Virus record (IMG/VR): IMGVR_UViG_3300032030_000023
Span: 1 to 64,000 of that record
Direction: 5' to 3' (one strand)
DNA from: an uncultured virus (IMG/VR IMGVR_UViG_3300032030_000023)
Taxonomy: Duplodnaviria > Heunggongvirae > Uroviricota > Caudoviricetes
DNA: 64,000 nt
The translations under genes were made by a program, and so were the position numbers. Below the pieces are notes generated by a model. That model saw only the letters and a list, made by a program, of their open reading frames with translations. It was not told where the DNA came from and made no database searches. Within the stretch, counting starts at the first letter, position 1, and every line of letters starts with the position of its first letter. Shown here piece by piece: positions 8,215-25,306 of this stretch.

Positions 8215-8247
8215 AAAGACTTAACTTTAGATAGTTAGGTCTTTTTT
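8215..8247 (+). terminator. intrinsic terminator directly upstream of the fibre A leader
   Basis: aaagacttaact / agttaggtcttt stem plus T-run. Confidence 0.7.
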
Positions 8248-8284
8248 ATTATATTATTTAGGTCTACTTTGTGTCGTTTATATG

Positions 8285-8309
8285 AATCTATAATATACCT
8301 AAACTAGAG
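8285..8309 (+). repeat. 25-bp inverted repeat (fibre A leader), partner 19844-19868
   Basis: aatctataatatacctaaactagag is the exact reverse complement of 19844-19868. Confidence 0.9.
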
Positions 8310-8327
8310 CGTAGGAAATAGACACAA

Positions 8328-10460
8328 ATGCCAACATCACTCTCAAATATCACTGTTAAAGATTCTGCACATTCTCTTGTAATCAAATCAAACGATATTA
8401 CTATTGATGGTACTAGTATACTTGGACAAAATAATTTTGTCACTCTTGATACAGCACAAACGATTTTGGGTAAAAAAACATTTAGTACTGAAATTATTCA
8501 AAATAAATCAACAAGTGGATATACAGGTTTTTATTCACAAAATACGGCTATTACAAGAGGAACCACTCCTTCTTCAAATTCTGGTATTACTATAGGATTA
8601 CAAGATTCAACGGGATTAAATTCATCTGGAAGATTAGCTGCATTTCAATTACAGTATAATACAGATGGTAATATACAAGCGTCTATGATAGCTGGTGAAC
8701 CAGTCTCAGGTAGTAGTGATAATGCGAGAATTAGTTTATTTAATACTGCTACGGGTACAGCTTATACATCAGCTCCAACACCTATGGAAGATACAACCAC
8801 ATCAAAACAAATTGATACTGTAGGTGCAAGAAATACTAAATTATATAAAGGAATTACTAACTGTATTACATATATCCCGCAAGACATTAAGTTAGAGATA
8901 AACTCAAATGGGAAAGCTGTATTAAAGGCAGGGAGTAAGGTTTATGTACCGAATGGGTTTACAGGAACAACACCAAAATTTGATGTTAATACTATTGCTA
9001 GTGATATTACTTATAATTTTCAATCATCACAGAATGGAAAATATTTACTAGCAAACCATAACAACGGACAAAATGCTGGCTGGTCTAAAGCTAACCTAGC
9101 GGAAAGTGGAACGAGTACAGAATCAAATACTTCATTTTATTATAGAACAGATGATAATAAAGTATATTATCTAAATGATTCTTCAGGCGGTATTTACACA
9201 CTTCCTTTGGCTATTGTAAATTTAACAAATGGTGTTGCAACTATAGATCAAGTCTTTAACGGCTTTGGTTATATTGGTTCAACAGCATTTGCACTTCCTG
9301 GAGTTAAAGGACTTATACCTAATGGCAGAAATGAAGATGGAAGTTTGAAGAATATTGAGTTTATAACAAGTACAGTATATACGAGAAATTTAACACAAAC
9401 TGGTACATACTATATGGGATTAACAGTATCAGGAATTGCAGTGTCAAATTTAACAAATAGCTCATATAATGAAAATGAAAACATAAATTATTCAGGGACA
9501 GTTAAATGGTTTGCTTCTCCATATTGTATTTGTCTTTTATCATCAGGTGTCATTACATCTCTCACTCCTAAAACCCCATTCCACGCAGTTGATTATAATG
9601 ACTTTTCAGACTTGAAAGATATTGTAGATAACACTGTGAAGCTGACAGGTAACCAGACCATTAATGGGGCTAAAACATTTACTGCTTCACCCGTTATAAG
9701 TAATAACATTACTGATACTTCATTATTTTTTAAAGATACAGGTATTGCTTCAAATTCAACAGTACCTACAGCTGACAGATTACGTTCTTTTAGAGTTATG
9801 GCGAATGACAATACGATATTAGGAGACGTAAGATTCGTTAGACAGTCATCAGGAAATGTAACATCACAACTAACTTGTAGAAAAGTTATAGATGGAACTC
9901 AATATAATTCTGCAGTAACAGCAAATGTTTCATCAACAGGTATTATATACGGAACTTGTCCAACGCCTCCGGCTGTTTCTAATACAACTGATGCTTATAT
10001 AGCAACAACAGCATGGTGTAATGACCCAATAAAAAGTACTAATGTAGTTCATAGAAATGGTAATGAAACCATTGGTGGTACAAAGACATTTAATACTACT
10101 TATACATCATTCAAAGGAACAGCCATTGATATTACAAATGCAAAAACTACACAAAATGATGTAGGGATAAACTGGCTAGATAAAAATGGAACAGTTTTAG
10201 GACAAAATCATATTAGAACAGACACTACAGGCTCTGTTGCAAATAGTATGTATATCAAAGCTCATAATAGCAATAGTTGGGTGAGTATCACTGTCGGTTT
10301 TGATACTAATGATAATGTCTATACACATGCTCCGACGCCAGCTGTTTCTAGTAATAATACTAATATAGCAACTACGGCTTATGTAAACAATAAGTTTCAA
10401 GTTGTATCTGCACTACCAGCTTCTCCTGATAGTAATGTTTTCTACTTTATACCAGCTTAG
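8328..10460 (+). CDS. tail fibre protein A
   Basis: T/S/N/G-rich with VxLTGNQTIxGxKTF and PTP..IATT repeats; conserved N-terminus MPTSLSNITVKD and C-terminus QVVSALPASPDSNVFYFIPA. Confidence 0.85.
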   Translation: MPTSLSNITVKDSAHSLVIKSNDITIDGTSILGQNNFVTLDTAQTILGKKTFSTEIIQNKSTSGYTGFYSQNTAITRGTTPSSNSGITIGLQDSTGLNSSGRLAAFQLQYNTDGNIQASMIAGEPVSGSSDNARISLFNTATGTAYTSAPTPMEDTTTSKQIDTVGARNTKLYKGITNCITYIPQDIKLEINSNGKAVLKAGSKVYVPNGFTGTTPKFDVNTIASDITYNFQSSQNGKYLLANHNNGQNAGWSKANLAESGTSTESNTSFYYRTDDNKVYYLNDSSGGIYTLPLAIVNLTNGVATIDQVFNGFGYIGSTAFALPGVKGLIPNGRNEDGSLKNIEFITSTVYTRNLTQTGTYYMGLTVSGIAVSNLTNSSYNENENINYSGTVKWFASPYCICLLSSGVITSLTPKTPFHAVDYNDFSDLKDIVDNTVKLTGNQTINGAKTFTASPVISNNITDTSLFFKDTGIASNSTVPTADRLRSFRVMANDNTILGDVRFVRQSSGNVTSQLTCRKVIDGTQYNSAVTANVSSTGIIYGTCPTPPAVSNTTDAYIATTAWCNDPIKSTNVVHRNGNETIGGTKTFNTTYTSFKGTAIDITNAKTTQNDVGINWLDKNGTVLGQNHIRTDTTGSVANSMYIKAHNSNSWVSITVGFDTNDNVYTHAPTPAVSSNNTNIATTAYVNNKFQVVSALPASPDSNVFYFIPA

Positions 10461-11860
10461 GCAGGAATGTAATAAAATACGTTAGAGTCCGGGCTAGCAG
10501 GTAAAGCTGAAACTACCTGATGTTTATTATTAACATATGCAGTTGTCGCAGCAGTAGCCTCATTTGAAGAAGTAGCAGGTGTAGGTAAGTTCACTTTACT
10601 ATTAAATATTGCGACGCTATTACCATCTGACAGAACTTGTAAAACTAATTGAGAATAAGCTGAACTCGTTTTGCCGTTTGCTCTAATCGCAAAGATTCTA
10701 TTTTCACTTGTATCTACATTTAAATTAATATATCCTAATTGAGTAGAAGAAGCATCATACCACTCTATAAATCTTTGTGTACTTGTAGAAGTTGGTGTTC
10801 CATTAGTATAGGCTTTATTAAATAGTCTTATTTGTGCATATGAATTTGATGTGTTACCATTACCAAGTATTATTTGATTGTGTGCTGTGACCCAATTACT
10901 CATATTAAATTGTGAAAGATCACTGTGTAGTTTTTGTAATTCTAAACCTTTAGCACCATTTGATAAATAATGTATCCCTAAATAAGCAAGACGAGTGTTA
11001 TTATTTCCTCTAAAATCATAACCTACATATTGATTTGATGAAGGAGTAGAACCTGGAGTAATACTATTATTTTGAGCAATAAAATTAACTGGTCCAGTAA
11101 TAGCCGCTACATAATTACTTATATCAAAATGTGCTGAAGAGGCTATTTGTGGAGAATTTTGATTTTTATGAGCTATTAAATCTAAATAAGTATAATATTG
11201 TGTACTGTTAGAAGGATCACCGTTTTGAACACATAAATGACAACCTACTGCATCATTAGTATATTGTCTCATTTGCATAAAAAATGTTCTACTACCGTTT
11301 TTATCAGCTTGTATATAATAATTATTTCCCCATGTATCTGCTGTTAAGGTTTTTGTTTTATCTATAGTAGTATTAATCTGCTGTATACTTAAATTACTAA
11401 GACGTGATTGTACCCAAGCAGTAGTAGCAATTCGTGAGGTACTGTCTGATACTGAAGAAGGAGTTGGAGCTTCTGCATAAGATGTTCCGTCTGATTTTAT
11501 ACCTACTCGAATAGCAGCATAACCATTTCCATTTTGTTGTCTTGCGTATAAACTTTTTCTATAAGTACCATCTGTTAAATGTTCGCATTCTAATCCACCT
11601 AACCAAATATTATTTTTATCTGTAAATCCAATGGAACTAATAGTTTGTTCAGATGGAGCAGTAGTCCAATCATCATTCATACCTTTCTTATAAAATACTT
11701 CTCTGAACCATTTATGAGCTTTTATATCTTGATCAGTATCTAGTGTGACAAAATTATTTGTAGCAAGAATAGATGAACCATTTATAGTAATATCATTAGC
11801 TTTAACTATAAGTGTGTTAGTACCATCTTTTACTGTAATATTACTTAAACTTGTTGTCAT
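10457..11860 (-). CDS. tail fibre protein B
   Basis: same N- and C-terminal motifs; convergent with A with overlapping stop codons. Confidence 0.85.
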   Translation of the reverse strand: MTTSLSNITVKDGTNTLIVKANDITINGSSILATNNFVTLDTDQDIKAHKWFREVFYKKGMNDDWTTAPSEQTISSIGFTDKNNIWLGGLECEHLTDGTYRKSLYARQQNGNGYAAIRVGIKSDGTSYAEAPTPSSVSDSTSRIATTAWVQSRLSNLSIQQINTTIDKTKTLTADTWGNNYYIQADKNGSRTFFMQMRQYTNDAVGCHLCVQNGDPSNSTQYYTYLDLIAHKNQNSPQIASSAHFDISNYVAAITGPVNFIAQNNSITPGSTPSSNQYVGYDFRGNNNTRLAYLGIHYLSNGAKGLELQKLHSDLSQFNMSNWVTAHNQIILGNGNTSNSYAQIRLFNKAYTNGTPTSTSTQRFIEWYDASSTQLGYINLNVDTSENRIFAIRANGKTSSAYSQLVLQVLSDGNSVAIFNSKVNLPTPATSSNEATAATTAYVNNKHQVVSALPASPDSNVFYYIPA

Positions 11861-11931
11861 TTTTCGTCTATTCCTTGTACTCTAATTCAGATATATTATA
11901 GATTCGTATAGAGTGTTAAAAATAGACTTAA
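11861..11931 (-). repeat. diverged copy of the fibre A/C leader
   Basis: minus strand tatacgaatctataatatatctgaattagag..aatagac aligns with the A leader, mostly by transitions. Confidence 0.75.
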
Positions 11932-11951
11932 TTTAACTTAAAGTATTGTTT

Positions 11952-12227
11952 TTAATGAATAATGAAGCCTGGAGATAGAACTACTATTTTACCTTTTTTA
12001 TTTTTAGCATATAAAGCGGATTTTGGTTTACCATGATCTATCCAATATTTAACAAGTAAAATATGAAAATGATTAAAAGGATTATGAGATTTTTCAAAAT
12101 GAGGACAACTGCAAGTTTTAAGATCTGCAGATACAAAAAAAGAAGAGACTAAAACTGAATTTATTTTTTCATGTACAAAGTATCCATTTATTTCTTCATC
12201 TACGATACTTTCTTCAATAAGATACAT
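11952..12227 (-). CDS. SWIM-like zinc-finger protein
   Basis: CSCPHF...HFHIL; start moved to MYLIEE on RBS position. Confidence 0.5.
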   Translation of the reverse strand: MYLIEESIVDEEINGYFVHEKINSVLVSSFFVSADLKTCSCPHFEKSHNPFNHFHILLVKYWIDHGKPKSALYAKNKKGKIVVLSPGFIIH

Positions 12228-12353
12228 ATTAATTCCTTTTTCCTTTTTATAACAATAATACATTATATTAGAACATTAATTTTCATAAAAAATTATAAAG
12301 AAAAAGAGTGTATTAACGAAAACACACTCTCTAACAAACATATTAATTAAAAA

Positions 12354-12992
12354 TTACATAAGACCTATACATAAACCGAATGTAAAGCCATGTAAAATTT
12401 CAGCTAAATTTTTAGGCTCATTTATAGTTAATTTTACAAACATAGAATTAGTATATAATGATGGAAATTTAGCAAAAAGTTTATGACAACTTAAATAAAT
12501 AGGATACATACATAAAATAAGAATTAACCATAACCAAGAATGGTATAAAATCATAGCAGGTAATAAACCAACTAATGCACGCATACTACTATAAATCCAG
12601 TCATATACACCATAGTATTTATGAATATGATAAGGTAAATGTAACAGATCTTCTACAACCCAATTTATAAAACGAACGATCTGATTACATAAAGGACGAA
12701 ACCATAAGCTGTAAGAGTCGCGATTTTGTACTCCACTTTGGCCAGAATCTATGATCTCTCCTATTGACCTAGACCAGTACTGTACTATGATATACAGAGA
12801 TGTAGCAGCAATAGAGAAAGCTTTCCAGAATTCGTTATTAATAGTTACACTCATCTGTATATGCATTAGTACAAAACCAAGAGCCATAATTCCGATCATT
12901 TCTTGAGTAGCTCTAGAAAGTATCTTTTTAAATTTACCTTCTCCAAAAAGACGTCTCCAAAGAGCCCAAAACATTCCACATAATAAACTCAT
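12354..12992 (-). CDS. multi-pass membrane protein
   Basis: several hydrophobic segments. Confidence 0.6.
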   Translation of the reverse strand: MSLLCGMFWALWRRLFGEGKFKKILSRATQEMIGIMALGFVLMHIQMSVTINNEFWKAFSIAATSLYIIVQYWSRSIGEIIDSGQSGVQNRDSYSLWFRPLCNQIVRFINWVVEDLLHLPYHIHKYYGVYDWIYSSMRALVGLLPAMILYHSWLWLILILCMYPIYLSCHKLFAKFPSLYTNSMFVKLTINEPKNLAEILHGFTFGLCIGLM

Positions 12993-13136
12993 TATTTTTA
13001 ACTCCAGTATTAATAATATATATACTTATTAGAACTATTCAAAAGCTTGTTTTAATTAGCATTTTGTTATATAACTATTAGGTCTCATTTTAAGCTCATA
13101 CAGTGATGATATGTCATTTTACTATAAGTTATAAAG

Positions 13137-13169
13137 AAAAGACCCAAAACGTTAATTCTGGGTCATTTT
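13137..13169. terminator. intrinsic terminator
   Basis: gaccca / tgggtc stem flanked by A and T runs. Confidence 0.5.
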
Positions 13170-13192
13170 AGTAACTATTTTTGTTATATTTA

Positions 13193-13588
13193 TTATGAAT
13201 CTTTTTTGCTACAGATATGATGTGCTAGTTTTTTAGCAGATTGTTCCAAAGGATAGAGAATTCCACCTGTTGTTTTTAAGAATTCGTAGATTTTTTGTTC
13301 TACTTGTTCTTCGTTATTTGAGTCTTCTGTTATTTCTTTAGGACTCATTACTTTTTTAATATAATTCCATACTTTTTGTGTAACTTCTTCTTGTTGTTCA
13401 TCTGATAGTTCATTAAAAGAATGTGAATGATAATTTGCTATTTCATTAAGAAAATCTTTTACGCTTTCATAATCTTTAGCCTTTAATATCATATTACTTT
13501 CAATGTAGTTTAACTTTTTAATGATAGTATTTGCGATTCTGCTTAGAGGATTAATTGCTTCCATAAATGCTTGACGTGTAATAGACAT
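13193..13588 (-). CDS. hypothetical protein
   Basis: 131-aa ORF translationally coupled to the upstream gene. Confidence 0.55.
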   Translation of the reverse strand: MSITRQAFMEAINPLSRIANTIIKKLNYIESNMILKAKDYESVKDFLNEIANYHSHSFNELSDEQQEEVTQKVWNYIKKVMSPKEITEDSNNEEQVEQKIYEFLKTTGGILYPLEQSAKKLAHHICSKKDS

Positions 13589-14415
13589 TAGAATTCTCCT
13601 TTAAGACTTTTTAGATAATCAATAACTTCATTAAGTTTATCTTTAGCTTCTTGTGAATATACTGTCAATACCATATCTTCTATTTTCATGATATCAAAGT
13701 CTAAATCACTATTTCTATCTTCTTGTCTTTCAACAGCAGGATCTTTACTATTTACTAATATATTTTCTATTGCTTCAATAGTTCCTTGTTCTAATCCAAA
13801 GTTTATTTTTACTCCCCAAAGATATTTATCTACTTCTTCAGCAGTCATGTCTTGAGGAAATCTGTCAAGCATATTATAAACTTCTTCTTTCTGTCTATCA
13901 TCTAATGCAACAGTTTGAAAGATAGCATATTCAACTTTATCTTTATTATAAAGTCTATTTTCAGCTACATTCTCTTCAAAAGCTTGCACTGATTCTGTTA
14001 GAGATTCTTTTACAGTTTTATCTTCTTTTTCTTTATTATCATCTGTATTTTCTTCAGACGTAATTTCAGAATTTTCAGTATCTTTACCTGTATTAGCTTC
14101 TTCTACACCATCTTCAAATGCTTTTTTAATAGTATCTACTTTAGACATTTGTGTTGTTAATTGAGCAAGATGTTTTACTTCTTCTCTTTTAATATCTTCT
14201 AATGTATCGTGAAAAAGCTCTACTAATGATTTTGTAGTTACATTTTCTTCTAAAGCTAATATTTGGTCATACTCATTACAAGCAGAAGTTTCACTAGAAA
14301 TAGCTCCCATAATAGCTTGCTTATACTGTTCATCATAAGTGATATCTACAGTATTTGTATCTAGTGGATTTACTTCTGCTTCAGTCAGAGTTTTCTTTTT
14401 AGGAATAAATCTCAT
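13588..14415 (-). CDS. ferritin-like domain protein (probably virion-associated)
   Basis: AISSETSACNEY ... IKREEVKH (ExxH) helical pattern, acidic C-terminus. Confidence 0.5.
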   Translation of the reverse strand: MRFIPKKKTLTEAEVNPLDTNTVDITYDEQYKQAIMGAISSETSACNEYDQILALEENVTTKSLVELFHDTLEDIKREEVKHLAQLTTQMSKVDTIKKAFEDGVEEANTGKDTENSEITSEENTDDNKEKEDKTVKESLTESVQAFEENVAENRLYNKDKVEYAIFQTVALDDRQKEEVYNMLDRFPQDMTAEEVDKYLWGVKINFGLEQGTIEAIENILVNSKDPAVERQEDRNSDLDFDIMKIEDMVLTVYSQEAKDKLNEVIDYLKSLKGEF

Positions 14416-14432
14416 AACATTACTTCTTTTTT

Positions 14433-15143
14433 TTATTTTTGGACTGGATTTGCAGCACTCGATTTGTTTACAAAGTATGTATTATCGTCACCTAATTCTA
14501 GAGAAACTGTAGAAACAGTAATATTTTTAGGTAACTTATTCTTATCTACTTGCGATACTTTATAAGCATTGTTTTTCTGATCATCTAATACTTGATCTAC
14601 ATGAATACCTTCTGAACCTTCACCAATTTCGTTCTTCAAAGTATTTAAAACATCAGAAACGTTAATTCGCATGTCCTGCTGGTAATCTTTAGGACCTGCG
14701 AAATCACTTGCCTCAGATAGATATGCTAAACAGTCTTTACCTTCTAAAATCTCGTTCATGAATTTACCATAAGTACCTTCGCCAAACATGTGATGTAGCA
14801 TATGTTCTACTTTGTCTTCACCTTCTTCGCAGTGATCATCTTCACAAGGGTTATCAATTTCTTTTACTGAAATATTTACTAATTCATTTGTAACATCAGC
14901 ATCATGATCAACTGGACCTTCAGCTTTATTTTCAAAGTTAGTATCGTTTGACATTTCAGCTGTATTTACGAGATTTTGAGCATCTGTAATTTCTTCTTGT
15001 GCAAATTCACCCGGAACTACATTAGCCATACCCATATCATCGAATGACTGTACACCATTCTGTTTAATCATATCAGCAGTACTTTCAATACCTTCTTTTA
15101 ATACTGATTTAGCTGCTTCTAATAATTCGTTCTTAAGATTCAT
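14433..15143 (-). CDS. acidic putative prohead core/internal protein
   Basis: N-terminal LLEAAKSVLKEG (L-x-E motifs), acidic. Confidence 0.45.
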   Translation of the reverse strand: MNLKNELLEAAKSVLKEGIESTADMIKQNGVQSFDDMGMANVVPGEFAQEEITDAQNLVNTAEMSNDTNFENKAEGPVDHDADVTNELVNISVKEIDNPCEDDHCEEGEDKVEHMLHHMFGEGTYGKFMNEILEGKDCLAYLSEASDFAGPKDYQQDMRINVSDVLNTLKNEIGEGSEGIHVDQVLDDQKNNAYKVSQVDKNKLPKNITVSTVSLELGDDNTYFVNKSSAANPVQK

Positions 15144-15298
15144 TTATTTTTATCCTTATTAAAAACTCGAGTATATTTGTAGGGATTATTATGTTTTTCT
15201 TTTAAAGACTTACGCTTTTTATCTTTTTCATATCTTTGCATATATTCAACGAAGCGCTTATATGTAAATTTAGAAGATATTTCGTTATCGTCTTTCAT
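15140..15298 (-). CDS. small basic hypothetical protein (52 aa, below ORF-track cutoff)
   Basis: MKDDNEISSKFTYKRF...NKDKNK; aaggt RBS; ATGA overlap with the next gene. Confidence 0.5.
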   Translation of the reverse strand: MKDDNEISSKFTYKRFVEYMQRYEKDKKRKSLKEKHNNPYKYTRVFNKDKNK

Positions 15299-15367
15299 AA
15301 GTTAAACCTTTCTTTTACTTTTATTTAGAACTTCATCATAAATAGAACTTAATTATAACGCTAATTT

Positions 15368-16279: not shown

Positions 16280-16351
16280 TATATTCTCCAGTAATATATA
16301 CACTATTTATAATGTATAGAACTGAAAAATACAAACAATAAGCGAATAAAT

Positions 16352-16624: not shown

Positions 16625-16757
16625 TTATACATTAAGCTGGAATATAATAAAATACATTTGCATTCGGACTAGCTGGTAATGCAGAAACTACTTGATGCTT
16701 ACTGTTACAGTAAGCTGTAGTAGCTATTTTGGTACTGTTATCAGATACTGCTGGTGT
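16606..16757 (+). repeat. ~150-bp direct repeat, partner 23896-24047
   Basis: covers the 3' ends of fibres C and E plus the 30 nt encoding YLQKNGFIH*. Confidence 0.85.
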
Positions 16758-19700
16758 CGGAGCTTCAGTATAAAAAGAACCAGAAGCGTTGCATGATATT
16801 CCCAGAGTAGCACCGCTATTAGTTCCAGCAACAGGCGATTTTACAAACAAACGTGAAGAAACACTCCCATCTGTGTACATTCCTGTATATACTGAACCCA
16901 TTTCAACATTATTTTTATCAGTAATTCTAGAACCGCCATAACAGTTTGAGCTAGGAGCAGTGCCTTGCGTATAAACGCTAGATTGATATCTTACACGCAT
17001 ATCACCGTCTTTTAAAACTATTGGAACATTACTAAAAGTCTTAGTACCTGCAATAGTTTGATTTCCTGTTAATTTAACACAGTCAGAAGTATCGCCACTA
17101 GCACTTCCGTATTCTTGGAATTTACCATTAGTATAAGCATATATTTTATCTTGTGGACAGAAATAGCATTGGTAAGTAGAGTACGTATAACCGATAGGAA
17201 TGTAAAATTTATTATCAGCACTACTCGGAACAGTTGTCGTTACTAATGTTGAATCAATTGTCGCTGTTACACCATTAAGAGCAGATAATACTAAGTAGAC
17301 TGTTGCATATTGAGTACCTGTCCAAGATGAATTACCTGTTATATCTCTGACACTTCTACCTGATATTGCTCTAAAATTATTAGTACCTGTACCTGATGCA
17401 CTAATAGCTGAGCCAGCCACCAGAATTGGATAGCTTATATCAAAAGTAATTCCACTGCCTATGTTTTTATAACCAGCAGAAGTTCCTACAATAGCCCTCC
17501 CTGCTGTAATAGCCGTTGCGGCTTTAATATTATTAGCAATTTGAAGTCTATCAGTAGTATTACTGTCTAAATCGCCTATTAATTGATAATATGTGCCATC
17601 ATAAACAAATACGTATGTACGATTAATTCTTAAATATCCTTTATTAATAGCACTGCCACGATACTGAATAGCTTTTGCACCTGTACTATTAACATTAAGT
17701 GTCGGATTGTCTGCACCATTGGCTTCTGCTGTAAACTTAACAAAAATAACTGCACCAGTTTCTAACTTAAATCCCGTACACGCAACTACTTTTTCTTGTG
17801 TAGCTGCTGCTGTATCACAAGTACCATAATGAGTAATATTAGCAGAACCATCAAACTCAACACCATCTATCGTTCGTTTAGTAGTTAGCTTAGCAGCAGA
17901 ACCAGTAATACTACCAGACGATGTGATATATCCTTGAGCCTTAACGAAAGCAGTAGTAGCGATTTTAGTTGAGTTATCAGATGTAGCAGGTGTAGGAGCG
18001 TAAGTAAATACATTTTTATTTTGGTCGTAACCAATTGTTAATTTCGCGTCATTTGTTGAACCTGATGTTGGTTCAAATACTGCTAAATTTAATGTGGAAA
18101 CTCCGTTTGAGTTATAATCATGATAGATTTGAGCCATTTTATTAGTTTGAGCAGTTCCATTTTTATCATAAACAGTTCCAAACCATCCATCTATTGTACT
18201 TGTTGGAGCTGTACCTTTACTTATACCAGAATATTGCATGTAAAGATTAGGTTGAGTCATCTTTATTGTTGGAGTACTAGTAAAAGTCTTATTCCCAGCA
18301 ATAGTTTGGTTACCAGTAAGCTTAACAACATCACTATCAGCAGCTTTTGCATTCAAAGCGTTTTGTAAGTCTGTTTGATTTGATAATGTACCTGTAACTG
18401 ATCCCCAAGTAGCTTGACCACCAGAACTATATCCTTGTGCTTTAACCCAGGCAGTAGTAGCAATCTTTGTGGAGTTATCAGAAGTAGCTGGTGTAAGTGT
18501 AGTTAAATACTCACTAGTATCTCCTAAAAATAATTTTTTCCAAGAAGTCCATGTTCCATTTTTACAAGACCTAAAATATATACAACTCTCCTTAGCACCA
18601 TAATATTTTTGAAAGATAATGTGATCAGTTGACGAAAAATTCCTTATCATAGATGTTTCTAATAAAAAGGTATCTTGGTCTGCTATTGGTTTGTCTGTTA
18701 TGTTAGCACTCGCACCATTAGAAGTACAATAATAATATAATGTTTCACTACTACCAGTTGAAACACAATCATTTAAACTTATTGTTTGGAAAGATATATT
18801 TTTACCTCTAAATACACCATTGAAATATAGTGCATCATTTATAGTTTTATTTCCATTTATAGTTTCATCACCGCTTCTGTGAACAACGTTTGTAGATGTT
18901 GCTGGATTATTTACCCAACCCATTGTTGCTAAAAGGGTATCTGATGTTGAGGAAGTTGAATATACTAAATTATAGTTATAAGTATTTGATAAATTTCCTC
19001 CACCTGTATATATTAATGCGAAATTTTGACCATCATCAGCAATCATATTTCTAAGGTCAGCATATGAAGTATTTTCGCCATATTTGTGTGCTCTAAACCA
19101 ATAGCCTGTTTGTGATTTACCTTCTTGCGAATTATAGCTACGATAATTATATAAAGAAGTAACAGAATTATTAGTTAAATCTGTTGCTTCTAAAATAACA
19201 TGCGCTGAGGACTTAGTAAGTTCAGAAAAATCACTATACCCTTTTAGTTTATATATAGCACCACTTGTTAATGTTAAGTTTCCACTCTTTTCTTCATTAC
19301 CAGTTCTATGAATAACATTTGTACTGGTATCTGGATTGTTTACCCAACCTTTAGTTGGTACTTCTGTATCTGTTGTTGCACTAACGACTCTCGTTAAGGA
19401 TAAGTTTGTTCCATTACCATTAATACTAGCCGTAAATGCTCCATTATCACGATTTTGAACTTCAATATACCCTTCTTTATTTGAAGTTGCATTAACAGTA
19501 TTTAATCTATTATATAAAGCACCATTGACATAATATGATGATTGATTAACACTACCCTTTCCATTAGTATCAGTTAAATTAAATAAAGCAGTTCCCCCAC
19601 TACCTAAGTTAGCTGTTCTTTGAATGGCAGAACTAAAGGTTTTAACACCAGATATACTTTCATTACCAGTTTTGTGTACTACATCTGCATCGTTAGCTTT

Positions 19701-19811
19701 ATTATTTATCTGTGTTTGTATACTAGTACCATCTATTGTGATGTCGTTTGATTTAACTATGAGTGTATGACTTGAATCTTTTACTGTGATATTTGATAAA
19801 GAGGTAGGCAT
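16632..19811 (-). CDS. tail fibre protein C (longest)
   Basis: same N- and C-terminal motifs, repeated fibre modules, TIDGVEFDGSANIT motif. Confidence 0.88.
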   Translation of the reverse strand: MPTSLSNITVKDSSHTLIVKSNDITIDGTSIQTQINNKANDADVVHKTGNESISGVKTFSSAIQRTANLGSGGTALFNLTDTNGKGSVNQSSYYVNGALYNRLNTVNATSNKEGYIEVQNRDNGAFTASINGNGTNLSLTRVVSATTDTEVPTKGWVNNPDTSTNVIHRTGNEEKSGNLTLTSGAIYKLKGYSDFSELTKSSAHVILEATDLTNNSVTSLYNYRSYNSQEGKSQTGYWFRAHKYGENTSYADLRNMIADDGQNFALIYTGGGNLSNTYNYNLVYSTSSTSDTLLATMGWVNNPATSTNVVHRSGDETINGNKTINDALYFNGVFRGKNISFQTISLNDCVSTGSSETLYYYCTSNGASANITDKPIADQDTFLLETSMIRNFSSTDHIIFQKYYGAKESCIYFRSCKNGTWTSWKKLFLGDTSEYLTTLTPATSDNSTKIATTAWVKAQGYSSGGQATWGSVTGTLSNQTDLQNALNAKAADSDVVKLTGNQTIAGNKTFTSTPTIKMTQPNLYMQYSGISKGTAPTSTIDGWFGTVYDKNGTAQTNKMAQIYHDYNSNGVSTLNLAVFEPTSGSTNDAKLTIGYDQNKNVFTYAPTPATSDNSTKIATTAFVKAQGYITSSGSITGSAAKLTTKRTIDGVEFDGSANITHYGTCDTAAATQEKVVACTGFKLETGAVIFVKFTAEANGADNPTLNVNSTGAKAIQYRGSAINKGYLRINRTYVFVYDGTYYQLIGDLDSNTTDRLQIANNIKAATAITAGRAIVGTSAGYKNIGSGITFDISYPILVAGSAISASGTGTNNFRAISGRSVRDITGNSSWTGTQYATVYLVLSALNGVTATIDSTLVTTTVPSSADNKFYIPIGYTYSTYQCYFCPQDKIYAYTNGKFQEYGSASGDTSDCVKLTGNQTIAGTKTFSNVPIVLKDGDMRVRYQSSVYTQGTAPSSNCYGGSRITDKNNVEMGSVYTGMYTDGSVSSRLFVKSPVAGTNSGATLGISCNASGSFYTEAPTPAVSDNSTKIATTAYCNSKHQVVSALPASPNANVFYYIPA

Positions 19812-19843
19812 TATATAAGTCCTTGTTTTGTCTATATTTTTAT

Positions 19844-19889
19844 CTCTAGTTTAGGTATATTATAGATTGATATAAAAGGAAAGAAGTAG
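19844..19889 (-). repeat. composite leader of fibre C: 23-bp repeat shared with F and 25-bp repeat shared with A, overlapping by AA
   Basis: 19867-19889 is the reverse complement of 25252-25274; 19844-19868 is the reverse complement of 8285-8309. Confidence 0.9.
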
Positions 19890-19980
19890 TAATATAATTT
19901 AAAAGAAAATAAATAAAAATCCACTGAAATCCAAAAATATATAACAAACACATACTTTAGCATATAAAACTTTTTTAAGC

Positions 19981-20009
19981 TTTACAAATGTTAAAGATAA
20001 CTATATAAT
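19981..20009 (+). promoter_or_regulatory. sigma70-type promoter of the invertase
   Basis: TTTACA-17 nt-TATAAT. Confidence 0.7.
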
Positions 20010-20065
20010 ATATATCGTAAAAACAAAAATATTAACTTTAATTTTTAGAAAAAGGAAATAATACA

Positions 20066-20707
20066 ATGACAGTATATGCATATCTACGTGTTTCAACACA
20101 ACAACAAGATGAACAAAATCAAAGACTTGGTATTGATAAAAAAGCAGAACAACTAAATCTAACAATAGATAAATACATTATAGATAAGAAATCAGGAGCC
20201 ATTGATCCTAGTGAAAGAAACTTAGGTAAACTACTTAAAAAACTAAAACAAGGAGACATACTACTTATCAGTGAAATATCAAGACTATCACGTAAACTAT
20301 TCTCTCTTTTCAGCATCATAAAAGTACTACTAGAGAAACAAGTCACTATCTATTCAGTAAAGGATGGATATACACTAGATGCATCCATTCAGTCAAAGAT
20401 ACTTGCGTTCGCATTTGGTATTTCAGCCGAATTGGAACGCCAATTACTTTCTCAGAGGACTAAGGAAGCATTGGCTCATAAAAGAGAGCAGGGTGTTATA
20501 TTAGGTCGTCCTAAAGGTTCGAAGTCTTCATATCACAAACTTGATTCACATAAGACAAGATTATTGAATGATTACGAAAAAGGAGCAACTATAACATCAC
20601 TTGCAAAAAGGTATAAAGTCTCTCATAAAACTGTAAAGAAGTATGTAGATCGTTATAGAGGCATTTATCATCTTAAAGTTGAAGAGCAAGTTACTGAAGA
20701 GATTTAA
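20066..20707 (+). CDS. serine recombinase/DNA invertase, Mpi-like
   Basis: YAYLRVST (catalytic Ser), SRLSR, IQSKILAFAFGISAELERQLLSQRTKEAL, LGRPKG, C-terminal HTH. Confidence 0.9.
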   Translation: MTVYAYLRVSTQQQDEQNQRLGIDKKAEQLNLTIDKYIIDKKSGAIDPSERNLGKLLKKLKQGDILLISEISRLSRKLFSLFSIIKVLLEKQVTIYSVKDGYTLDASIQSKILAFAFGISAELERQLLSQRTKEALAHKREQGVILGRPKGSKSSYHKLDSHKTRLLNDYEKGATITSLAKRYKVSHKTVKKYVDRYRGIYHLKVEEQVTEEI

Positions 20708-21650
20708 GTAGAAGTTCTTTATCTTCATCCCAACAGTAGTGGAAGTTTTTACAAGTATATTTAAAGCTTCCACTATTTTTATTTTTATTACACGCTCTAT
20801 AAACAGATGATTTTTTTACTCCTATTTTTTCTGCTAATTTGGCGCCGTTTGTGTAAATTTTATCTTCTTCTAAACAATAGACTTTTGAAAACTTTTTATT
20901 TATAGGAATAGTAAATGTATCTTTATCTTTTAAATAACACCAATGATAACCTTCTGCTGTATGTTTTATTCCTGCACAAACTTTTTGAATGGCTGTTCTA
21001 CAATTAAATTCTTTTTCAGCTTCTGCTATAGTATTGAATATTCTATTTAATTCTACACAATATACAGGAGTTTTATTAGATTTATCTTCTCTTGGTGTAT
21101 ATGTATCTATATCCTTTTCATAACACCAATGCATATTAGCAGAAGTAGTATATTTCTTTTCGCAACAAGCAATTATTCCAGTATCTGTAAAATTATATTC
21201 TGGATATTTTTCACAAAATTCTTTATATGTAAGAGTTTCGTTTAATTCAAAACAATGATATTTACTAACAGTACGTCTTTCATTAAACTCTTTAAATTTT
21301 GTACTATTTTTAAGACCTTCACTTATATGTTTTTTAACTTCTTCTGTATATGCTTTTGATTCTTCTCCGCCCGAAGTTGAATTATAACCTTCATTCATAG
21401 AATTATAATGTTTTATCCAATAAATTTCTTTTTGACTTAATTCTTCTTGTGAATTGCCTTCATCTATTTGTTCAATAATAAAGTTATCTTTACCATATTT
21501 GCGAATAGCATTATGAAACTTATTGTGATAGATATTAGCATTTGCTTTATTAATATGTTGTTTGAAACGTCTTTTTAACTTTTGACGTGTTTGTCCTATA
21601 TAGACTTTATTATTTACTAAGTTTGTAATTTTGTAGATGATACCGTACAT
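20691..21650 (-). CDS. GIY-YIG homing endonuclease with NUMOD1-type repeats
   Basis: GIIYKITN..VYIGQT..RFKQH; repeated VYCxE..F..I.EA modules. Confidence 0.85.
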   Translation of the reverse strand: MYGIIYKITNLVNNKVYIGQTRQKLKRRFKQHINKANANIYHNKFHNAIRKYGKDNFIIEQIDEGNSQEELSQKEIYWIKHYNSMNEGYNSTSGGEESKAYTEEVKKHISEGLKNSTKFKEFNERRTVSKYHCFELNETLTYKEFCEKYPEYNFTDTGIIACCEKKYTTSANMHWCYEKDIDTYTPREDKSNKTPVYCVELNRIFNTIAEAEKEFNCRTAIQKVCAGIKHTAEGYHWCYLKDKDTFTIPINKKFSKVYCLEEDKIYTNGAKLAEKIGVKKSSVYRACNKNKNSGSFKYTCKNFHYCWDEDKELLLKSLQ

Positions 21651-21652
21651 TT

Positions 21653-21889
21653 TTAATATTTTCCGTAGTGAATATAGTCAAATAAATCTTTTTCAATCCC
21701 TTTAAGTTTATTTTCATCTTTTACAATATCGGAATGTACATTTTCTACAATAGTTGTAATTTTTGAGACGAATCCAGAGCCGATTGCAATAAGTGATCCA
21801 TATATTGCCATAATTGAGAGAATTATAGATAAAATATCTGAAATTAATCCAATTTTATCATTTAAATTCATTTTTTGAGTATTCTTCAT
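21653..21889 (-). CDS. small single-pass membrane protein
   Basis: hydrophobic helix; start placed at MKNTQK after aggagg. Confidence 0.5.
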   Translation of the reverse strand: MKNTQKMNLNDKIGLISDILSIILSIMAIYGSLIAIGSGFVSKITTIVENVHSDIVKDENKLKGIEKDLFDYIHYGKY

Positions 21890-22139
21890 TAAGATTCCTC
21901 CTATTTTTGTTAGTTCTAATAATATAAATAGAACCGAAATATTTTTTATTTTTATAAGTAAATACAAAGATAAATTTAAAAAATAAGCAGTTCTAAAAAG
22001 TAATATATGACAAGTTTTCTACTTTATATTGTTATTAAAAATTCTTGAACTTAAAAATACGGATATGCAGTATATATTAAGGATGGTTAATAACGGTATA
22101 TTGTAAAAAAGGATAATAATTAACTAGGTAAATTAAACC

Positions 22140-22172
22140 AACATTTAACATTATAAATCAAGGACTTAGATA
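22140..22172 (+). repeat. 33-bp inverted repeat (fibre D leader), partner 25181-25213
   Basis: aacatttaacattataaatcaaggacttagata, exact reverse complement match. Confidence 0.92.
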
Positions 22173-22173
22173 G

Positions 22174-23391
22174 ATGCCAACTTCTCTTTCAAATATTAAG
22201 GTTACAGATGGACAAAATAATCTTGTAATTACAGGAAACGATATAACAATAAATGGTACATCTATTTTAGGACAAAACAATTATGTTACATTAGATACTA
22301 CTCAGACTATTACAGGAGTAAAGACTTTTAGTAATACTATAAAAAGTACAAGACAAGGAGATGGTATTTTTTTAACTAGAAAAAGTAGTACAGATAGTAC
22401 AGGAGATGCATTTGTAGATTTAAAATTTTTTGATACATTAGGTAATAGAAAAGGTGGAGTTAGAAATATACTTGAAAATGGAAATACTACTTGTTTATAT
22501 GTAACAAACGAAGCTGGAAATGCTATTAAAAATACATTAAACCTAGTATATAATGAATCATCTGATAGAGTATATACAAGTATAATTAATCCAGAAATTA
22601 ATTCTCTTAATTTAAGAACAAACCAATATAATTGGGGTACAAATCCAACTACTGGTACAGATTTACTATCACATAATTTTAGAGATAATACCGATACTCC
22701 TGTTGTTTCTAATAGACCATATTTATCATCAAATGGTGATCGATATTATTTTATATCTGTTATTAATAAAGAAAAAACAAAATATACTGAATTAGCTGTT
22801 GGTTGGGATGCATCTGGAAATGCAAATACTGTTGCTCCAATTCCAACGTCTACTACTTCTACATCTTCTAGACAAATAGCTACTACTGGATGGGTAAATA
22901 CAGTTGGTAATAATGTTGTGCATTTAACTGGTAATGAAACTATAACAGGAGCTAAATGGGTTAATAATAGTTATATAATAAGAGGTAATGGTGAAATTCA
23001 ATTTACAGATACAACCGGATATACACCATCCAATCCACCTTCTGAAAGTAAAGCTTTTGGTACATTACGCTGGGGAGTAGGCTGTACAGCTGGTAATACT
23101 AGTTGGTTAAGTGGTGGTTCTGAATTATTAAAAATACAACCAATTATATCATCACAAGGAAAAGTAAATGTTGCTTTCGTAGTGTTTGATAGTTCTGGTA
23201 ATAGTAAGGAATTATTAGACTTATATTCTACTGCGGATGGAAGTGATGCTGCAGCTATAACTATTACACCTTCTAATGCAGATAATTCTAGAAAAATAGC
23301 TACGACTGCGTATGTAAATAATAAGTTACAAGTCGTATCAGCTTTACCAGCATCTCCTGATAGTAATACATTCTATTTTATTCCTGCATAA
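22174..23391 (+). CDS. tail fibre protein D
   Basis: shared N- and C-terminal motifs, VHLTGNETITG. Confidence 0.85.
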   Translation: MPTSLSNIKVTDGQNNLVITGNDITINGTSILGQNNYVTLDTTQTITGVKTFSNTIKSTRQGDGIFLTRKSSTDSTGDAFVDLKFFDTLGNRKGGVRNILENGNTTCLYVTNEAGNAIKNTLNLVYNESSDRVYTSIINPEINSLNLRTNQYNWGTNPTTGTDLLSHNFRDNTDTPVVSNRPYLSSNGDRYYFISVINKEKTKYTELAVGWDASGNANTVAPIPTSTTSTSSRQIATTGWVNTVGNNVVHLTGNETITGAKWVNNSYIIRGNGEIQFTDTTGYTPSNPPSESKAFGTLRWGVGCTAGNTSWLSGGSELLKIQPIISSQGKVNVAFVVFDSSGNSKELLDLYSTADGSDAAAITITPSNADNSRKIATTAYVNNKLQVVSALPASPDSNTFYFIPA

Positions 23392-23448
23392 TAATTATTA
23401 AAAAGTTCTATACATATATATCATTAAAAAATAAATGAGAATGTATAG

Positions 23449-23925
23449 ATGCCTATATGGAGAAGAATATTACAAGGAACTAAAAAAGTATCTCCTGCTG
23501 TACAAAGAAATGTATCTAATATAGCAAGAATATCTAACTTAGATTTAAGATATGATGAGGGTGTAAAAACTTTAACTTTTTATGCTAATGTAAAATCATC
23601 TACGTTTAATACATTCTATTCTGTTATTATTACATTCAAAGGTGTAGAAAGAACAGATGGTTTAACAGAAGATGAAATTAACAAAGGATTTCAACCAAAA
23701 CCTACACTATCAAAAAATGAAGTAATGATCCGCTGTTCTTGTAATAATTACAGATTTCGTTTTGATCAAGCTAACAGAAAAAATAAAGTAGGTACTGGTG
23801 CTAGATTTCCAATATATAGAAGAAAAACAAATAGAAAACCATATAATCCACATATGATAGCAGGTACATGTAAACATGTTATAGAATTATTAGATTATCT
23901 TCAAAAAAATGGTTTTATACACTAA
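23449..23925 (+). CDS. SWIM zinc-finger protein
   Basis: CSC...CKH motif; GTTCTA motif upstream (~23405). Confidence 0.65.
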   Translation: MPIWRRILQGTKKVSPAVQRNVSNIARISNLDLRYDEGVKTLTFYANVKSSTFNTFYSVIITFKGVERTDGLTEDEINKGFQPKPTLSKNEVMIRCSCNNYRFRFDQANRKNKVGTGARFPIYRRKTNRKPYNPHMIAGTCKHVIELLDYLQKNGFIH

Positions 23926-25178
23926 GCCGGAATATAATAAAATACATTTGCATCTGGACTGGCTGGTAATGCAGAAACTACTTGATGCTTATTATTACAA
24001 TAAGCCGTAGTCGCGATTTTCGTACTATTGTCTGATACTGCTGGAGTAACATCTAAACTTATATAATCATTATTAAGATATATTTTGCGATTATTTCCTG
24101 TTGTTCCATCTTGTGGTCTTAATTGGATACCTGTTGCATTGTTTGTTCCTTGTATTACTAAACACCCTCCTACATTACCATCTCCAACTTTTACATCATC
24201 ACCTATATTGTTCAAAATATTGTTTGCAAATTGAACAGCACTACTAAATGCTTTAGTACCACTAATAGTCTGATCACCATTCAATGTTACATAGTTTGAT
24301 AAACTTTGATGAGAAGTAAGATATCCTTGTGCTTTGACAAATGCAGTTGTTGCAATCTGTGTAGAGTTATCAGAAGTCGCGGGAGTAGGGGCGTAAGTAT
24401 AAACCGTTCCATCTCTTTTTGCTATAACTCTGATTGCTGCGTCATATGCTACATCCGAAGAATTTAAATTCGTCGCAATCATAGATGCTTGTATTTCATT
24501 ACTTGTTGTTTGTGTTACATAAAAATTACCAATTTGTGCATTGTTTTTATCTCTAATGAGCCAACTAGTATATTGAGTAGATGACGGAGCTGTTCCTCTT
24601 GTAATAGTTGAACTTTTTCTTATTGCATCCATACTATGTATTGTGTTTTCACTAAAGGTTTTAGTACCTGTAATAGTTTCATTTCCTGAAGTATGTACTA
24701 TTCCATTTCCGGCTGTTTTAACCCATGCAGTAGTAGCGATCTTAGTACTATTATCAGTTACAGCAGGTGTAATAGCTGTAGTATAACCATTATCGTTAGA
24801 ATCACAACCAATATTTAGCATTCCTTTATTATTACCGTTTTTATCATAAACTAAAAATCTAATTTCCCTTTCAGTAGAAGTATCTCTTAAATATATATCA
24901 CTCAGTACTAAAGCATTTTTATCAAGAAACTTACAGTGTGTATAATTTGCTGTAGATGGATTTACAGTTCTATCCATACCAGTATTTTTAAACTGAATAA
25001 AAACAGTATCAGTACCTCTAGTAATTGATTTTACACCTGTAATCTCTTGGTTTGTATCTAACGTTACAAAGTTATTAGTAGCTAATATACTACTTCCATT
25101 AATTGTAATATCATTAGCCTTAACAACTAATGTATTTTGTCCATCTTTTACCGTTATATTACTTAATGAAGTAGTCAT
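23922..25178 (-). CDS. tail fibre protein E
   Basis: shared N- and C-terminal motifs; N-terminus nearly identical to B. Confidence 0.85.
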   Translation of the reverse strand: MTTSLSNITVKDGQNTLVVKANDITINGSSILATNNFVTLDTNQEITGVKSITRGTDTVFIQFKNTGMDRTVNPSTANYTHCKFLDKNALVLSDIYLRDTSTEREIRFLVYDKNGNNKGMLNIGCDSNDNGYTTAITPAVTDNSTKIATTAWVKTAGNGIVHTSGNETITGTKTFSENTIHSMDAIRKSSTITRGTAPSSTQYTSWLIRDKNNAQIGNFYVTQTTSNEIQASMIATNLNSSDVAYDAAIRVIAKRDGTVYTYAPTPATSDNSTQIATTAFVKAQGYLTSHQSLSNYVTLNGDQTISGTKAFSSAVQFANNILNNIGDDVKVGDGNVGGCLVIQGTNNATGIQLRPQDGTTGNNRKIYLNNDYISLDVTPAVSDNSTKIATTAYCNNKHQVVSALPASPDANVFYYIPA

Positions 25179-25180
25179 AT

Positions 25181-25213
25181 TATCTAAGTCCTTGATTTAT
25201 AATGTTAAATGTT
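25181..25213 (-). repeat. 33-bp inverted repeat (fibre E leader)
   Basis: reverse complement of 22140-22172. Confidence 0.92.
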
Positions 25214-25251
25214 ACTTTAATTGACTTATTTTAGAAATTATATATAATGAT

Positions 25252-25274
25252 CTACTTCTTTCCTTTTATATCAA
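25252..25274 (+). repeat. 23-bp inverted repeat (fibre F leader)
   Basis: ctacttctttccttttatatcaa, reverse complement of 19867-19889. Confidence 0.9.
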
Positions 25275-25306
25275 CATTAAAAATATTATAGGACTTAGAC
25301 AAAAAT

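Follow-up and report, generated by a model that had tools for sequence, protein, structure and literature searches.

We analyzed a window of 64,000 nucleotides, the first part of a 124.6-kb record of an uncultured tailed phage. The window carries six fibre genes, here called A to F, whose reading frames are all complete (405-1059 aa), each with its own N-terminus and ribosome-binding site. Between genes C and D lies the gene for a serine DNA invertase, the only recombinase found in the record (Table 1). The predicted enzyme matches PF00239 over residues 3-144 (5.2e-30), and its residues R8, S10, R73 and R76, which align to R8, S10, R68 and R71 of gamma-delta resolvase, are invariant in all 25 aligned relatives. 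The alignment to gamma-delta resolvase extends to residue 195, and HTH_23, HTH_28 and HTH_7 match residues 162-199, each below the Pfam cut-off. At 213 aa and with this C-terminal helix-turn-helix region, the enzyme has the build of a small serine invertase (about 190-220 aa) and, judged from its sequence, is intact. By protein comparison the best family match is Mpi of Bacteroides fragilis (NF009949), which is matched at full length (positions 2-196 of 203 in the profile) yet below the cut-off (224.6 bits vs 272), so that by its sequence the invertase is a relative of this family and not an equivalog.

Table 1 Positions in the window of the fibre genes, the invertase gene, candidate crossover sites and putative regulatory elements
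Feature	Position	Strand	Remarks
Terminator-like hairpin	8211..8248	+	between the 142-aa tail-module gene and site A
Candidate site A	8272..8299	+	13 nt + AA 8285-8286 + 13 nt; left half weak
Fibre gene A, 710 aa	8328..10460	+	shared N-terminus MPTSLSNI..., BppL_N repeats
Fibre gene B, 467 aa	10457..11860	-	tail to tail with A
Candidate site B	11890..11917	-	AA at 11904-11903 in gene orientation; right half 3 mismatches
Fibre gene C, 1059 aa	16632..19811	-	
Candidate site C	19854..19881	-	AA at 19868-19867 in gene orientation; right half 2 mismatches
Sigma-70-like TTTACA-17-TATAAT before the invertase gene	19981..20009	+	11/12 consensus positions; consensus match only
Serine DNA invertase, Mpi-like, 213 aa	20066..20707	+	PF00239 5e-30, phrog_125
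Orphan GTTCTA promoter-like motif	21990..21995	+	150 nt upstream of site D, facing D
Candidate site D	22127..22154	+	AA 22140-22141; left half GGTAAATTAAA-cc
Fibre gene D, 405 aa	22174..23391	+	
Fibre gene E, 418 aa	23922..25178	-	tail to tail with the 158-aa gene after D
Candidate site E	25199..25226	-	AA at 25213-25212 in gene orientation; left half AGTCAATTAAA-gt, 2 mismatches
Sigma-70-like TTGACT-16-TATAAT just upstream of the left half of F	25221..25248	+	11/12 consensus positions; consensus match only
Candidate site F	25260..25287	+	AA 25273-25274; left 21 nt + AA identical to those of C
Fibre gene F, 753 aa	25307..27568	+	most divergent N-terminus

Leader repeats and their common AA

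An exact-repeat scan of the record recovered the three perfect inverted repeats that an earlier, sequence-only reading had reported upstream of the fibre genes. Leaders A and C share 25 nt (8285-8309 and 19844-19868), C and F share 23 nt (19867-19889 and 25252-25274), and D and E share 33 nt (22140-22172 and 25181-25213), the last pair being the sole repeat of at least 31 nt within the first 30 kb of the record. As that reading had claimed, the two repeats at C overlap by 2 nt at 19867-19868 (TT on the plus strand, AA in gene orientation), the D/E repeat starts at the AA at 22140-22141, and the six leader strings aligned on this AA are the same as it wrote them. The AA is common to all six fibre leaders, lies 34-57 nt upstream of the ATG, and is where the identity blocks stop. 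Leaders A and B share only 11 nt to the right of it (11903-11904 in B) and 1 nt to the left. The blocks are not due to chance: they contain no mismatch, whereas identity over the first 96 coding nt of the same gene pairs is only 54-76% (A/C 76%, D/E 68%, C/F 54%).

A weak dyad around the AA, TTAWA-N2-AA-N2-TWTAA, had also been proposed. It is present, though short, in A and C (as TTATA-N2-AA-N2-TATAA) and in D and E (as TTAAA-N2-AA-N2-TTTAA), but B and F each miss one side. Four of the six sites thus have the 5-bp dyad, whereas all six have the AA core and five have one strong half-site. The degenerate pattern has 5 hits in the window against 2.0 expected, a count reached by 3 of 100 shuffles; however, four of the five hits are paralogous leaders and so are not independent, and dyad enrichment taken alone is weak evidence. 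The dyad is short and AT-rich. A seventh site-like sequence, at record position 83625 (minus strand), is flanked by plus-strand genes, is not followed by any minus-strand frame of at least 50 aa, and was treated as chance. Nor do the leaders have a common RNA structure, which we reject because only leader B folds better than its shuffled sequences (z = -3.0), the other five lying at z values of -0.47 to +0.42.

Leaders of paralogous genes may resemble each other simply because they are duplicated promoters or 5' UTRs, with mosaics that arose by homologous recombination or gene conversion and an invertase that has its targets elsewhere or none at all in this region. TATAAT does occur in the right halves of A, B and C, which agree with GTTCTATA, the motif of this phage, in 4 of 6 positions and at its usual distance of 43-57 nt from the ATG. 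There are also further mosaic joins between leader and coding sequence (gene B, for example, combines an A/C-type leader with an E-like N-terminus), and the A/C-type dyad occurs in ordinary promoters of another viral locus, L061, where the dyads that we considered as sites are repeated sigma-70-like promoters. However, the likeness of aatctataat to GTTCTA, on which the sequence-only reading had based this alternative, carries little weight. GTTCTA is 6-fold enriched before genes (19 observed vs 3.1 expected), whereas AATCTA is found there 7 times vs 5.7 expected, three of the seven being leaders A, B and C themselves, and the enrichment of GTTCTA is not equalled by that of any variant with a single mismatch. 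Two further observations speak against this explanation, the likeness of the half-sites to those of related invertases at a fixed spacing and a recombinant joint whose arms share only 3 nt, an overlap too short to come from homologous exchange or from a chimera of a k=31 assembly. We regard it as very improbable.

Half-sites of related invertases and a recombinant contig

Among 80 viral loci, five with 43-58% identical invertases contain 12 sites of the form G[GT][TC]AAATTAAA-NN-TT (10 sites) or -TC (2 sites). In phages whose invertases are 48-58% identical, the shufflon sites read GGYAAATTAAA-NN-TT(/TC) and, where read in detail, are intragenic in fibre genes. In L015, a contig of 202,747 nt, they lie inside a fibre gene in the stretch coding TFNLP, and a 42-nt perfect inverted repeat starts exactly at the AA. 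At the same spacing in the window, the half-site is matched by D-left with 0 mismatches (the sole exact match in the window), by E-left, A-right and C-right with 2, and by B-right with 3; the right half of A, on the other strand, reads GGTATATTATA-ga-TT. Only 9.2e-4 of record positions have 2 or fewer mismatches to the half-site at that spacing. The weak halves have 5-6 mismatches, a level that 11-28% of background positions reach as well.

Each of the six candidate sites can be read as two inverted half-sites around an asymmetric 2-bp core that is identical in all partners, with A, D and F oriented one way and B, C and E the opposite way. In sites A, B and C it is the gene-side half that is strong, which is the polarity seen in the relatives' shufflons, whereas in D and E it is the upstream half. 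The halves are shared among sites: the left half of C is that of F and its right half is identical to that of A, and the 33-nt right arm of E is identical to that of D. By its sequence, F is a hybrid of an A/B/C-type left half (6 mismatches) and a D/E-type right half (5 mismatches), both weak.

The shufflons of L015, L016 and L058 resemble the window in their invertase (48-58% identical), the half-site GGYAAATTAAA, the 2-nt spacer and the TT/AA core, and L015 further has in common with it GTTCTATA motifs and a gene homologous to the 158-aa one. They differ in that their sites are coding (read as TFNLP in L015 and L058) and their silent cassettes have no starts, whereas the sites in the window are non-coding and of two polarities. 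Close relatives were not found in viral contigs by invertase, degenerate A/C right-half pattern, six-fibre N-terminal alignment or tail sheath, and megablast of 7500-27600 gave no match in phage records, among which tblastn with the invertase found 7 at 40-43% identity. A scan of metagenomes returned only the same assembly (L002, a 263,336-nt contig 100% identical over 20,639 nt) and remote invertases. A 51%-identical invertase in a MAG contig of 41% GC, found among genome contigs, has no clear inverted repeats nearby and was set aside as unrelated.

Contigs were compared for 4 of the 24 listed sequencing runs, including X1 (the probable source sample), X3 (bovine) and X5 (goat gut). Record 27 of X5 comes from a related phage, ~95% identical over the compared pieces. 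It follows the window from 19867 to 20780 and from 21649 to 22138, then switches strand and runs from 19869 downward. The resulting joint, 22138|19869, has 3 ambiguous letters (cAA) and a shorter side of 199 letters, and unites D-left, AA and C-right. The contig has 28 nt in front of 19867, a start that would be expected with a right arm next to C-left that is 30 nt or longer and repeated elsewhere. Record 22 of X3 (665 nt), from a different study, matches the window from 20217 down to 19867, and its further 314 nt, beyond the AA of C, are not colinear with the window. Thus both the X5 joint and the end of colinearity in X3 fall at the core, each in a single contig; the recombinant junction was seen in one contig only, among 15 of the 45 joints listed. 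Of the breakpoints that had been predicted, the pair 19867-19868 and 22140-22141 is thereby observed, as a strand-switching joint in a related phage.

Two independent lines, the X5 and X3 contigs and the likeness to the relatives' sites, with the same 2-nt spacer and the same core boundary, place the crossover at the AA and support the earlier suggestion that the leader mosaics are invertase sites. We consider it likely that the Mpi-like serine invertase encoded by the phage recombines at sites in the six fibre leaders, and that inversion re-deals the contexts of the fibre genes.

Such sites could be genuine in a system that is now largely frozen, with inversions as rare evolutionary differences between strains and no switch running within a population. 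Where X1 contigs span sites A, B, C and F they have the arrangement of the window, and no alternative arrangement was found in them at these four sites; since contigs drop rare variants, so that minor forms are invisible in them, we treat this single arrangement as neutral rather than negative. Breaks of the X1 contigs at D and E are expected from the 33-nt repeat at k=31. Also compatible with a frozen system are the C x D product in X5, a difference between ~95% identical phages, and F, whose two weak halves look like the dead product of a cross-type exchange. On the other hand, the intact invertase has a promoter-like site of its own and catalytic residues that do not vary among relatives, and the site blocks are perfect next to coding sequence of 54-76% identity. 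In addition, one X5 contig ends at 8297, 11 nt past the AA of A, where A-right and B-right first differ, and another starts near B at the mirror position, 11892. This is the de Bruijn branch expected if both orientations of the A-B segment are present in X5, as in a within-sample mixture, but the argument from contig ends is weak, because breaks in the absence of any repeat occur in the X1 contigs too, at ~14.6 kb and ~18.2 kb. Many short-sided joints in X1 around 14016-14048 look like foreign or low-complexity matches and were discarded. We consider a frozen system unlikely, though less so than duplicated promoters.

A candidate switch of whole fibre genes

If the leaders are invertase sites, each would span ~28 bp, arranged as two 11-nt halves, each set apart by a 2-nt spacer from the asymmetric core AA between them, with one strong and one weak half per site except in F, where both would be weak. 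According to PMC4817059, serine recombinases make a 2-bp staggered cut at the centre of the site, and mismatched core nucleotides block recombinant ligation; the AA that is invariant in all six sites fits this need for matching cores. With two opposed sites cut at the AA, inversion would swap everything downstream, that is, leader, ribosome-binding site and complete fibre gene, between two upstream contexts. As the sites lie upstream of complete genes that each retain their own start codon, inversion would alter only the context of transcription. These contexts appear to differ. D would be served by the orphan GTTCTA on the invertase-bearing C-D segment, much like the promoter of the Salmonella H segment, and the enrichment and spacing of this motif suggest that it may be a promoter. 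F has a candidate sigma-70-like promoter, A lies behind the terminator-like hairpin, and E has no recognisable element upstream. We infer from this layout that the phage may vary the choice of fibres that it makes out of the six, or their timing.

More tentatively, these features may form one combined switch, in which two site classes of opposite polarity, a single invertase, a ratchet between classes and an outward-facing promoter on the C-D segment re-deal the six fibres among active and silent contexts. Exchanges within a class (among A, B and C, or between D and E) would keep one strong half per site and be reversible. Of the two sites created by an exchange between classes, one would have two strong halves (D-left plus C-right, the combination found in X5) and the other two weak halves; F looks like a fossil of this second kind. 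Such products would act as a ratchet, locking a fibre gene in or out of play. We computed that 320 arrangements are reachable by inversion.

In the G segment of Mu, the C segment of P1 and Min of p15B, crossover occurs within a fibre gene and combines a constant N-terminal portion with one of several alternative C-terminal ones. Like these phages, the window has a phage-borne small serine invertase beside fibre genes, several sites in both orientations and fibre genes placed tail to tail (A with B, and E with the 158-aa gene after D), and as in a shufflon the invertase gene is adjacent to the invertible fibre-gene segments. Unlike theirs, its crossover sites are not inside a fibre gene, but before the start codons of six separate, complete genes. 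The Gin/Mu G, Cin/P1 C and Min/p15B systems are cited in PMC9881135 and in a preprint (10.64898/2026.02.14.705889); the cyanophage isomers of that preprint, which involve a 30-kb segment without a dedicated recombinase, are not a comparable case.

The window also has traits of inversion systems in bacteria, as listed here by their likeness. The H segment of Salmonella, inverted by Hin, carries the invertase gene and an outward-facing promoter. Similarly, the C-D segment bears the invertase and perhaps also a promoter, at the GTTCTA motif (21990) that is directed towards D in the window; in X5 the same segment end adjoins C. Hin acts on two sites and moves a promoter, whereas here there would be six sites, and genes would move in addition to a promoter. 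In its bacterium, Mpi inverts segments that carry promoters of capsule loci, a single invertase serving several dispersed sites, as would be the case in the window. In the vsa locus of Mycoplasma pulmonis, inversions bring alternative surface-protein genes to a fixed upstream expression context, and whole genes are moved between expression contexts as in the model proposed here; vsa, however, belongs to a bacterium, its recombinase is of another class, and its sites are located within the 5' coding region. The 2-bp core is likewise common to Hin and the window (PMC4817059). We found no description in the literature of whole-fibre-gene shuffling at phage leader sites, which is not proof of its absence.

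Programmed phage inversion that exchanges the tip of one fibre is already known. In this 263-kb ruminant-gut phage, the probable sites of an invertase of the same family lie outside coding sequence, before six complete fibre genes. Provided that transcription differs between the upstream contexts, the phage could exchange all of its host-binding fibres without hybrid proteins. The relatives that carry the same half-site inside a fibre gene would provide a natural series for the movement of a site from coding sequence to leader, and the site model GGYAAATTAAA-NN-core can be used to find such switches in metagenomes.

Fibre genes around a serine invertase

The window is the opening 64 kb of a virus record 124,640 nt long (G+C ~28%), which itself sits within a 263,336-nt metagenome contig (identity over the 20,639 nt compared). 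Sheep, goat and bovine gut runs contain DNA near-identical or related to it. The six fibre genes, A to F, are bounded by a tail sheath gene and a homing endonuclease gene. Their products all begin MPTSLSNI..., with 12 invariant columns within the first 44 residues; four of the six match the BppL_N motif (A, C and E, with D scoring under the cut-off), and products C and E match tail or tail-fibre families. The serine recombinase encoded between C and D matches Resolvase (5e-30) and PHROG 125 ‘DNA invertase’, its best NCBIfam match being the Mpi family (224.6 bits, under the cut-off of 272). Its R8, S10, R73 and R76 fall opposite the catalytic residues in an alignment with gamma-delta resolvase, and all 25 relatives aligned have them unchanged. 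Within the 124.6-kb record this protein was the one serine recombinase found, and there was no tyrosine recombinase.

Features of the fibre region (window coordinates)
Feature	Position	Strand	Remark
Tail sheath gene	4949-6910		boundary
Fibre gene A	8328-10460	+	
Fibre gene B	10457-11860	-	
B leader	11861-11934	-	
311-aa protein gene	15368-16303	-	B-C segment
Fibre gene C	16632-19811	-	
Serine recombinase gene	20066-20707	+	213 aa, between C and D
GIY-YIG homing endonuclease gene	20691-21650	-	C-D segment
Fibre gene D	22174-23391	+	
Fibre gene E	23922-25178	-	
Fibre gene F	25307-27568	+	
Homing endonuclease gene	27605-28258		boundary
Repeat A/C	8285-8309 / 19844-19868		perfect, inverted
Repeat C/F	19867-19889 / 25252-25274		perfect, inverted
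Repeat D/E	22140-22172 / 25181-25213		perfect, inverted

Several parts of the region vary or remain without assignment. The GIY-YIG gene, which overlaps the 3' end of the invertase gene by 17 nt, is a presence/absence polymorphism within the invertible C-D segment: it is missing in a related phage from a goat gut run (X5), where 20780 joins directly to 21649. Gene C has internal repeat modules, and its length differs in the X5 relative (skips of 957 and 744 nt, back-step of 1453 nt). In the B-C segment, the 311-aa protein has a strong phrog_7999 match and a sub-threshold match to Stealth CR2, and five further genes have no assignment; near window 15371, between the genes for the 236-aa and 311-aa proteins, the X5 relative carries ~1.8 kb of extra sequence (record 26, 3478-5265). 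At 14016-14048 many source-run contigs of other depths join or end (bin depth up to 84.8), which suggests a short sequence common to other organisms, or low complexity. Across the whole record, Shine-Dalgarno words (AAGGAGG and similar) are 6-8-fold enriched upstream of genes, which argues for a host using strong ribosome-binding sites.

Leaders aligned on a single AA

The sequence-only reading had described the leaders as half-site mosaics joined at a central AA. An exact-repeat scan recovered all three perfect inverted repeats where they had been placed (see table), the D/E pair being the sole repeat of at least 31 nt within the first 30 kb. The common alignment held as well: in gene orientation, an AA 34-57 nt before the ATG aligns all six leaders, and the perfect runs stop there, extending leftward for 21 nt in C/F (0 rightward), and rightward for 23 nt in A/C and 31 nt in D/E (0 leftward in both). 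Since the first 96 coding nt are only 54% (C/F), 76% (A/C) and 68% (D/E) identical, the leader blocks are specially conserved, with borders coinciding at one dinucleotide. The B leader can fold with its left arm paired to the ribosome-binding-site stretch (-14.3 kcal/mol, z = -3.0; equalled by 2 of 200 shuffles); the other five leaders gave no comparable fold.

Leaders A, B and C are unlikely to be promoters only, but may serve as promoters besides being probable invertase sites, since their right halves contain TATAAT. In another fetched locus (L061), promoters of an ordinary, repeated kind fit the A/C-type dyad too, so that the dyad alone is unsafe as evidence. The upstream motif enriched in this record is a different one, aGTTCTA(a/t)(a/t)a, which is 6-fold enriched, with 19 seen vs 3.1 expected at -65 to -20 of the 191 genes in a crude gene call; most copies are 31-50 nt from the start codon. 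GTTCTA is present at many neighbours of the fibre genes and at its usual place in none of the six. The AATCTA of leaders A, B and C is unenriched (7 seen vs 5.7 expected, three of the seven being these leaders themselves), and no single-mismatch variant of GTTCTA came near its enrichment. Examples of the enriched motif lie at window 6975, 7694, 16322(-), 21990 and 23405, and it recurs in a distantly related 203-kb phage (L015, 16012-16031 and 16725-16744); probably a transcription system directed by the phage uses it as its promoter.

Half-sites in relatives and a probable crossover in contigs

A protein search returned 6,641 invertase relatives at E <= 1e-20, the nearest (98%, 80% and 73% identical) on short contigs. 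Through an alignment of 25 relatives we fetched 80 viral loci, whose invertases are 43-58% identical to that of the window. Five of them held 12 sites of the form G[GT][TC]AAATTAAA (four each in L015 and L016, two in L058, one each in L020 and L065); after a gap of two letters, 10 of the sites have TT and the other 2 have TC. L015, part of a 202,747-nt phage contig, has GTTCTATA motifs ~40 nt before genes and a gene homologous to the 158-aa one of the window. One of its sites lies within a 486-aa gene, in a stretch coding ...GNSTFNLPDG..., the remaining three precede alternative tips, and a 42-nt perfect inverted repeat starts exactly at AA; the four sites make up a conventional shufflon. The L058 sites and one L016 site are intragenic too.

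We scored the window half-sites against GGYAAATTAAA at the relatives' spacing (11 nt, 2-nt spacer, core). D-left had 0 mismatches, E-left, A-right and C-right 2 each, B-right 3, and the other seven 5-6; two or fewer occur at 9.2e-4 of all record positions, and GGTAAATTAAA occurs once in the window, at D. Putative sites A-E thus each combine one strong and one weak half, like the relatives' sites. Sites A, B and C have their strong half towards the gene, which is the relatives' polarity, and D and E have theirs on the upstream side; in F both halves are weak. Outside the window, a sequence in L013 (~3605-3626; record 83625, -) is one letter off the central 18 nt of site C and lies in a gap between plus-strand genes; with no minus-strand reading frame of at least 50 aa downstream, it is probably a chance match.

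Logan contigs from 4 of 24 listed runs were compared with window 7000-26999, covering 15 of the 45 joints and a minority of the loose ends. The X5 phage is ~95% identical to the window over the pieces shown. Its record 27 (3,688 nt, depth 13.3) follows 19867-20780, then 21649-22138, and then the opposite strand from 19869 down into gene C. This joint has 199 letters on its shorter side, and its three ambiguous letters are c-A-A: it is a hybrid of D-left, AA and C-right, with both halves strong. Because the arms have no homology beyond these letters, homologous exchange and a k=31 assembly chimera are both excluded as its origin. A crossover had been predicted at 19867-68 / 22140-41, and this strand-switching joint in a related phage falls there. 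Record 27 starts 28 nt ahead of 19867; a contig would be expected to begin there if C-left adjoined a repeated right arm, for example the D/E arm, at least 30 nt long. In a bovine run from a separate study (X3), record 22 (665 nt) tracks the window downward from 20217, leaves it exactly at 19867 and continues with 314 nt unlike the window.

At A and B, one X5 contig ends at 8297 and another begins at 11892, mirror positions 11 nt past the two AAs, at the first A/B right-half difference. Had the sample contained the A-B segment in both orientations, a de Bruijn branch would give this pattern; we hold this argument loosely because contigs of the probable source run (X1) also break at ~14.6 kb and ~18.2 kb, where no repeat lies. 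At A, B, C and F the X1 contigs have only the arrangement of the window, and they break at D and E as expected of the 33-nt repeat; a single arrangement says little either way, since contigs drop minor forms. The X5 joint and the likeness of the half-sites to those of related invertases together support the earlier proposal, and we consider it likely that the six leaders are crossover sites of the invertase.

Proposed working of the switch

The accessible text of PMC4817059 describes serine recombinases as making a 2-bp staggered cut at the site centre, recombinants with mismatched core nucleotides not being ligated. An invariant, asymmetric AA would therefore fix polarity, with A, D and F pointing in one direction and B, C and E in the opposite one. 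From the window arrangement, nine single inversions would be possible, and 320 arrangements could be reached if every opposed pair were competent; with only 59 nt between them, sites E and F may be an unusable pair. Each inversion would trade a leader, ribosome-binding site and whole gene between two upstream contexts. These contexts seem to differ: an orphan GTTCTA lies 150 nt ahead of D, within the C-D segment that bears the invertase gene; TTGACT-16-TATAAT precedes F; A comes after a terminator-like hairpin and B after a minus-strand operon, with GTTCTA 77 nt ahead of B; and no recognisable element was found upstream of C and E.

The locus works like those of Mu, P1 and p15B and the shufflons of relatives (L015 and others), but lacks the crossover within a gene that they have and that defines the Mu, P1 and p15B systems; its C-D segment is similar to the H segment of Salmonella. 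Gene-altering inversions, in the portion of PMC9881135 available, join a single upstream part to alternative downstream parts, and the literature searched, in its accessible text, described no phage that shuffles whole fibre genes at leader sites. The window locus is a variant of the known invertase switch, differing in that its sites lie in the leaders of whole fibre genes. Judging from sequence, inversion could change which fibres are made, a reading we put forward tentatively.
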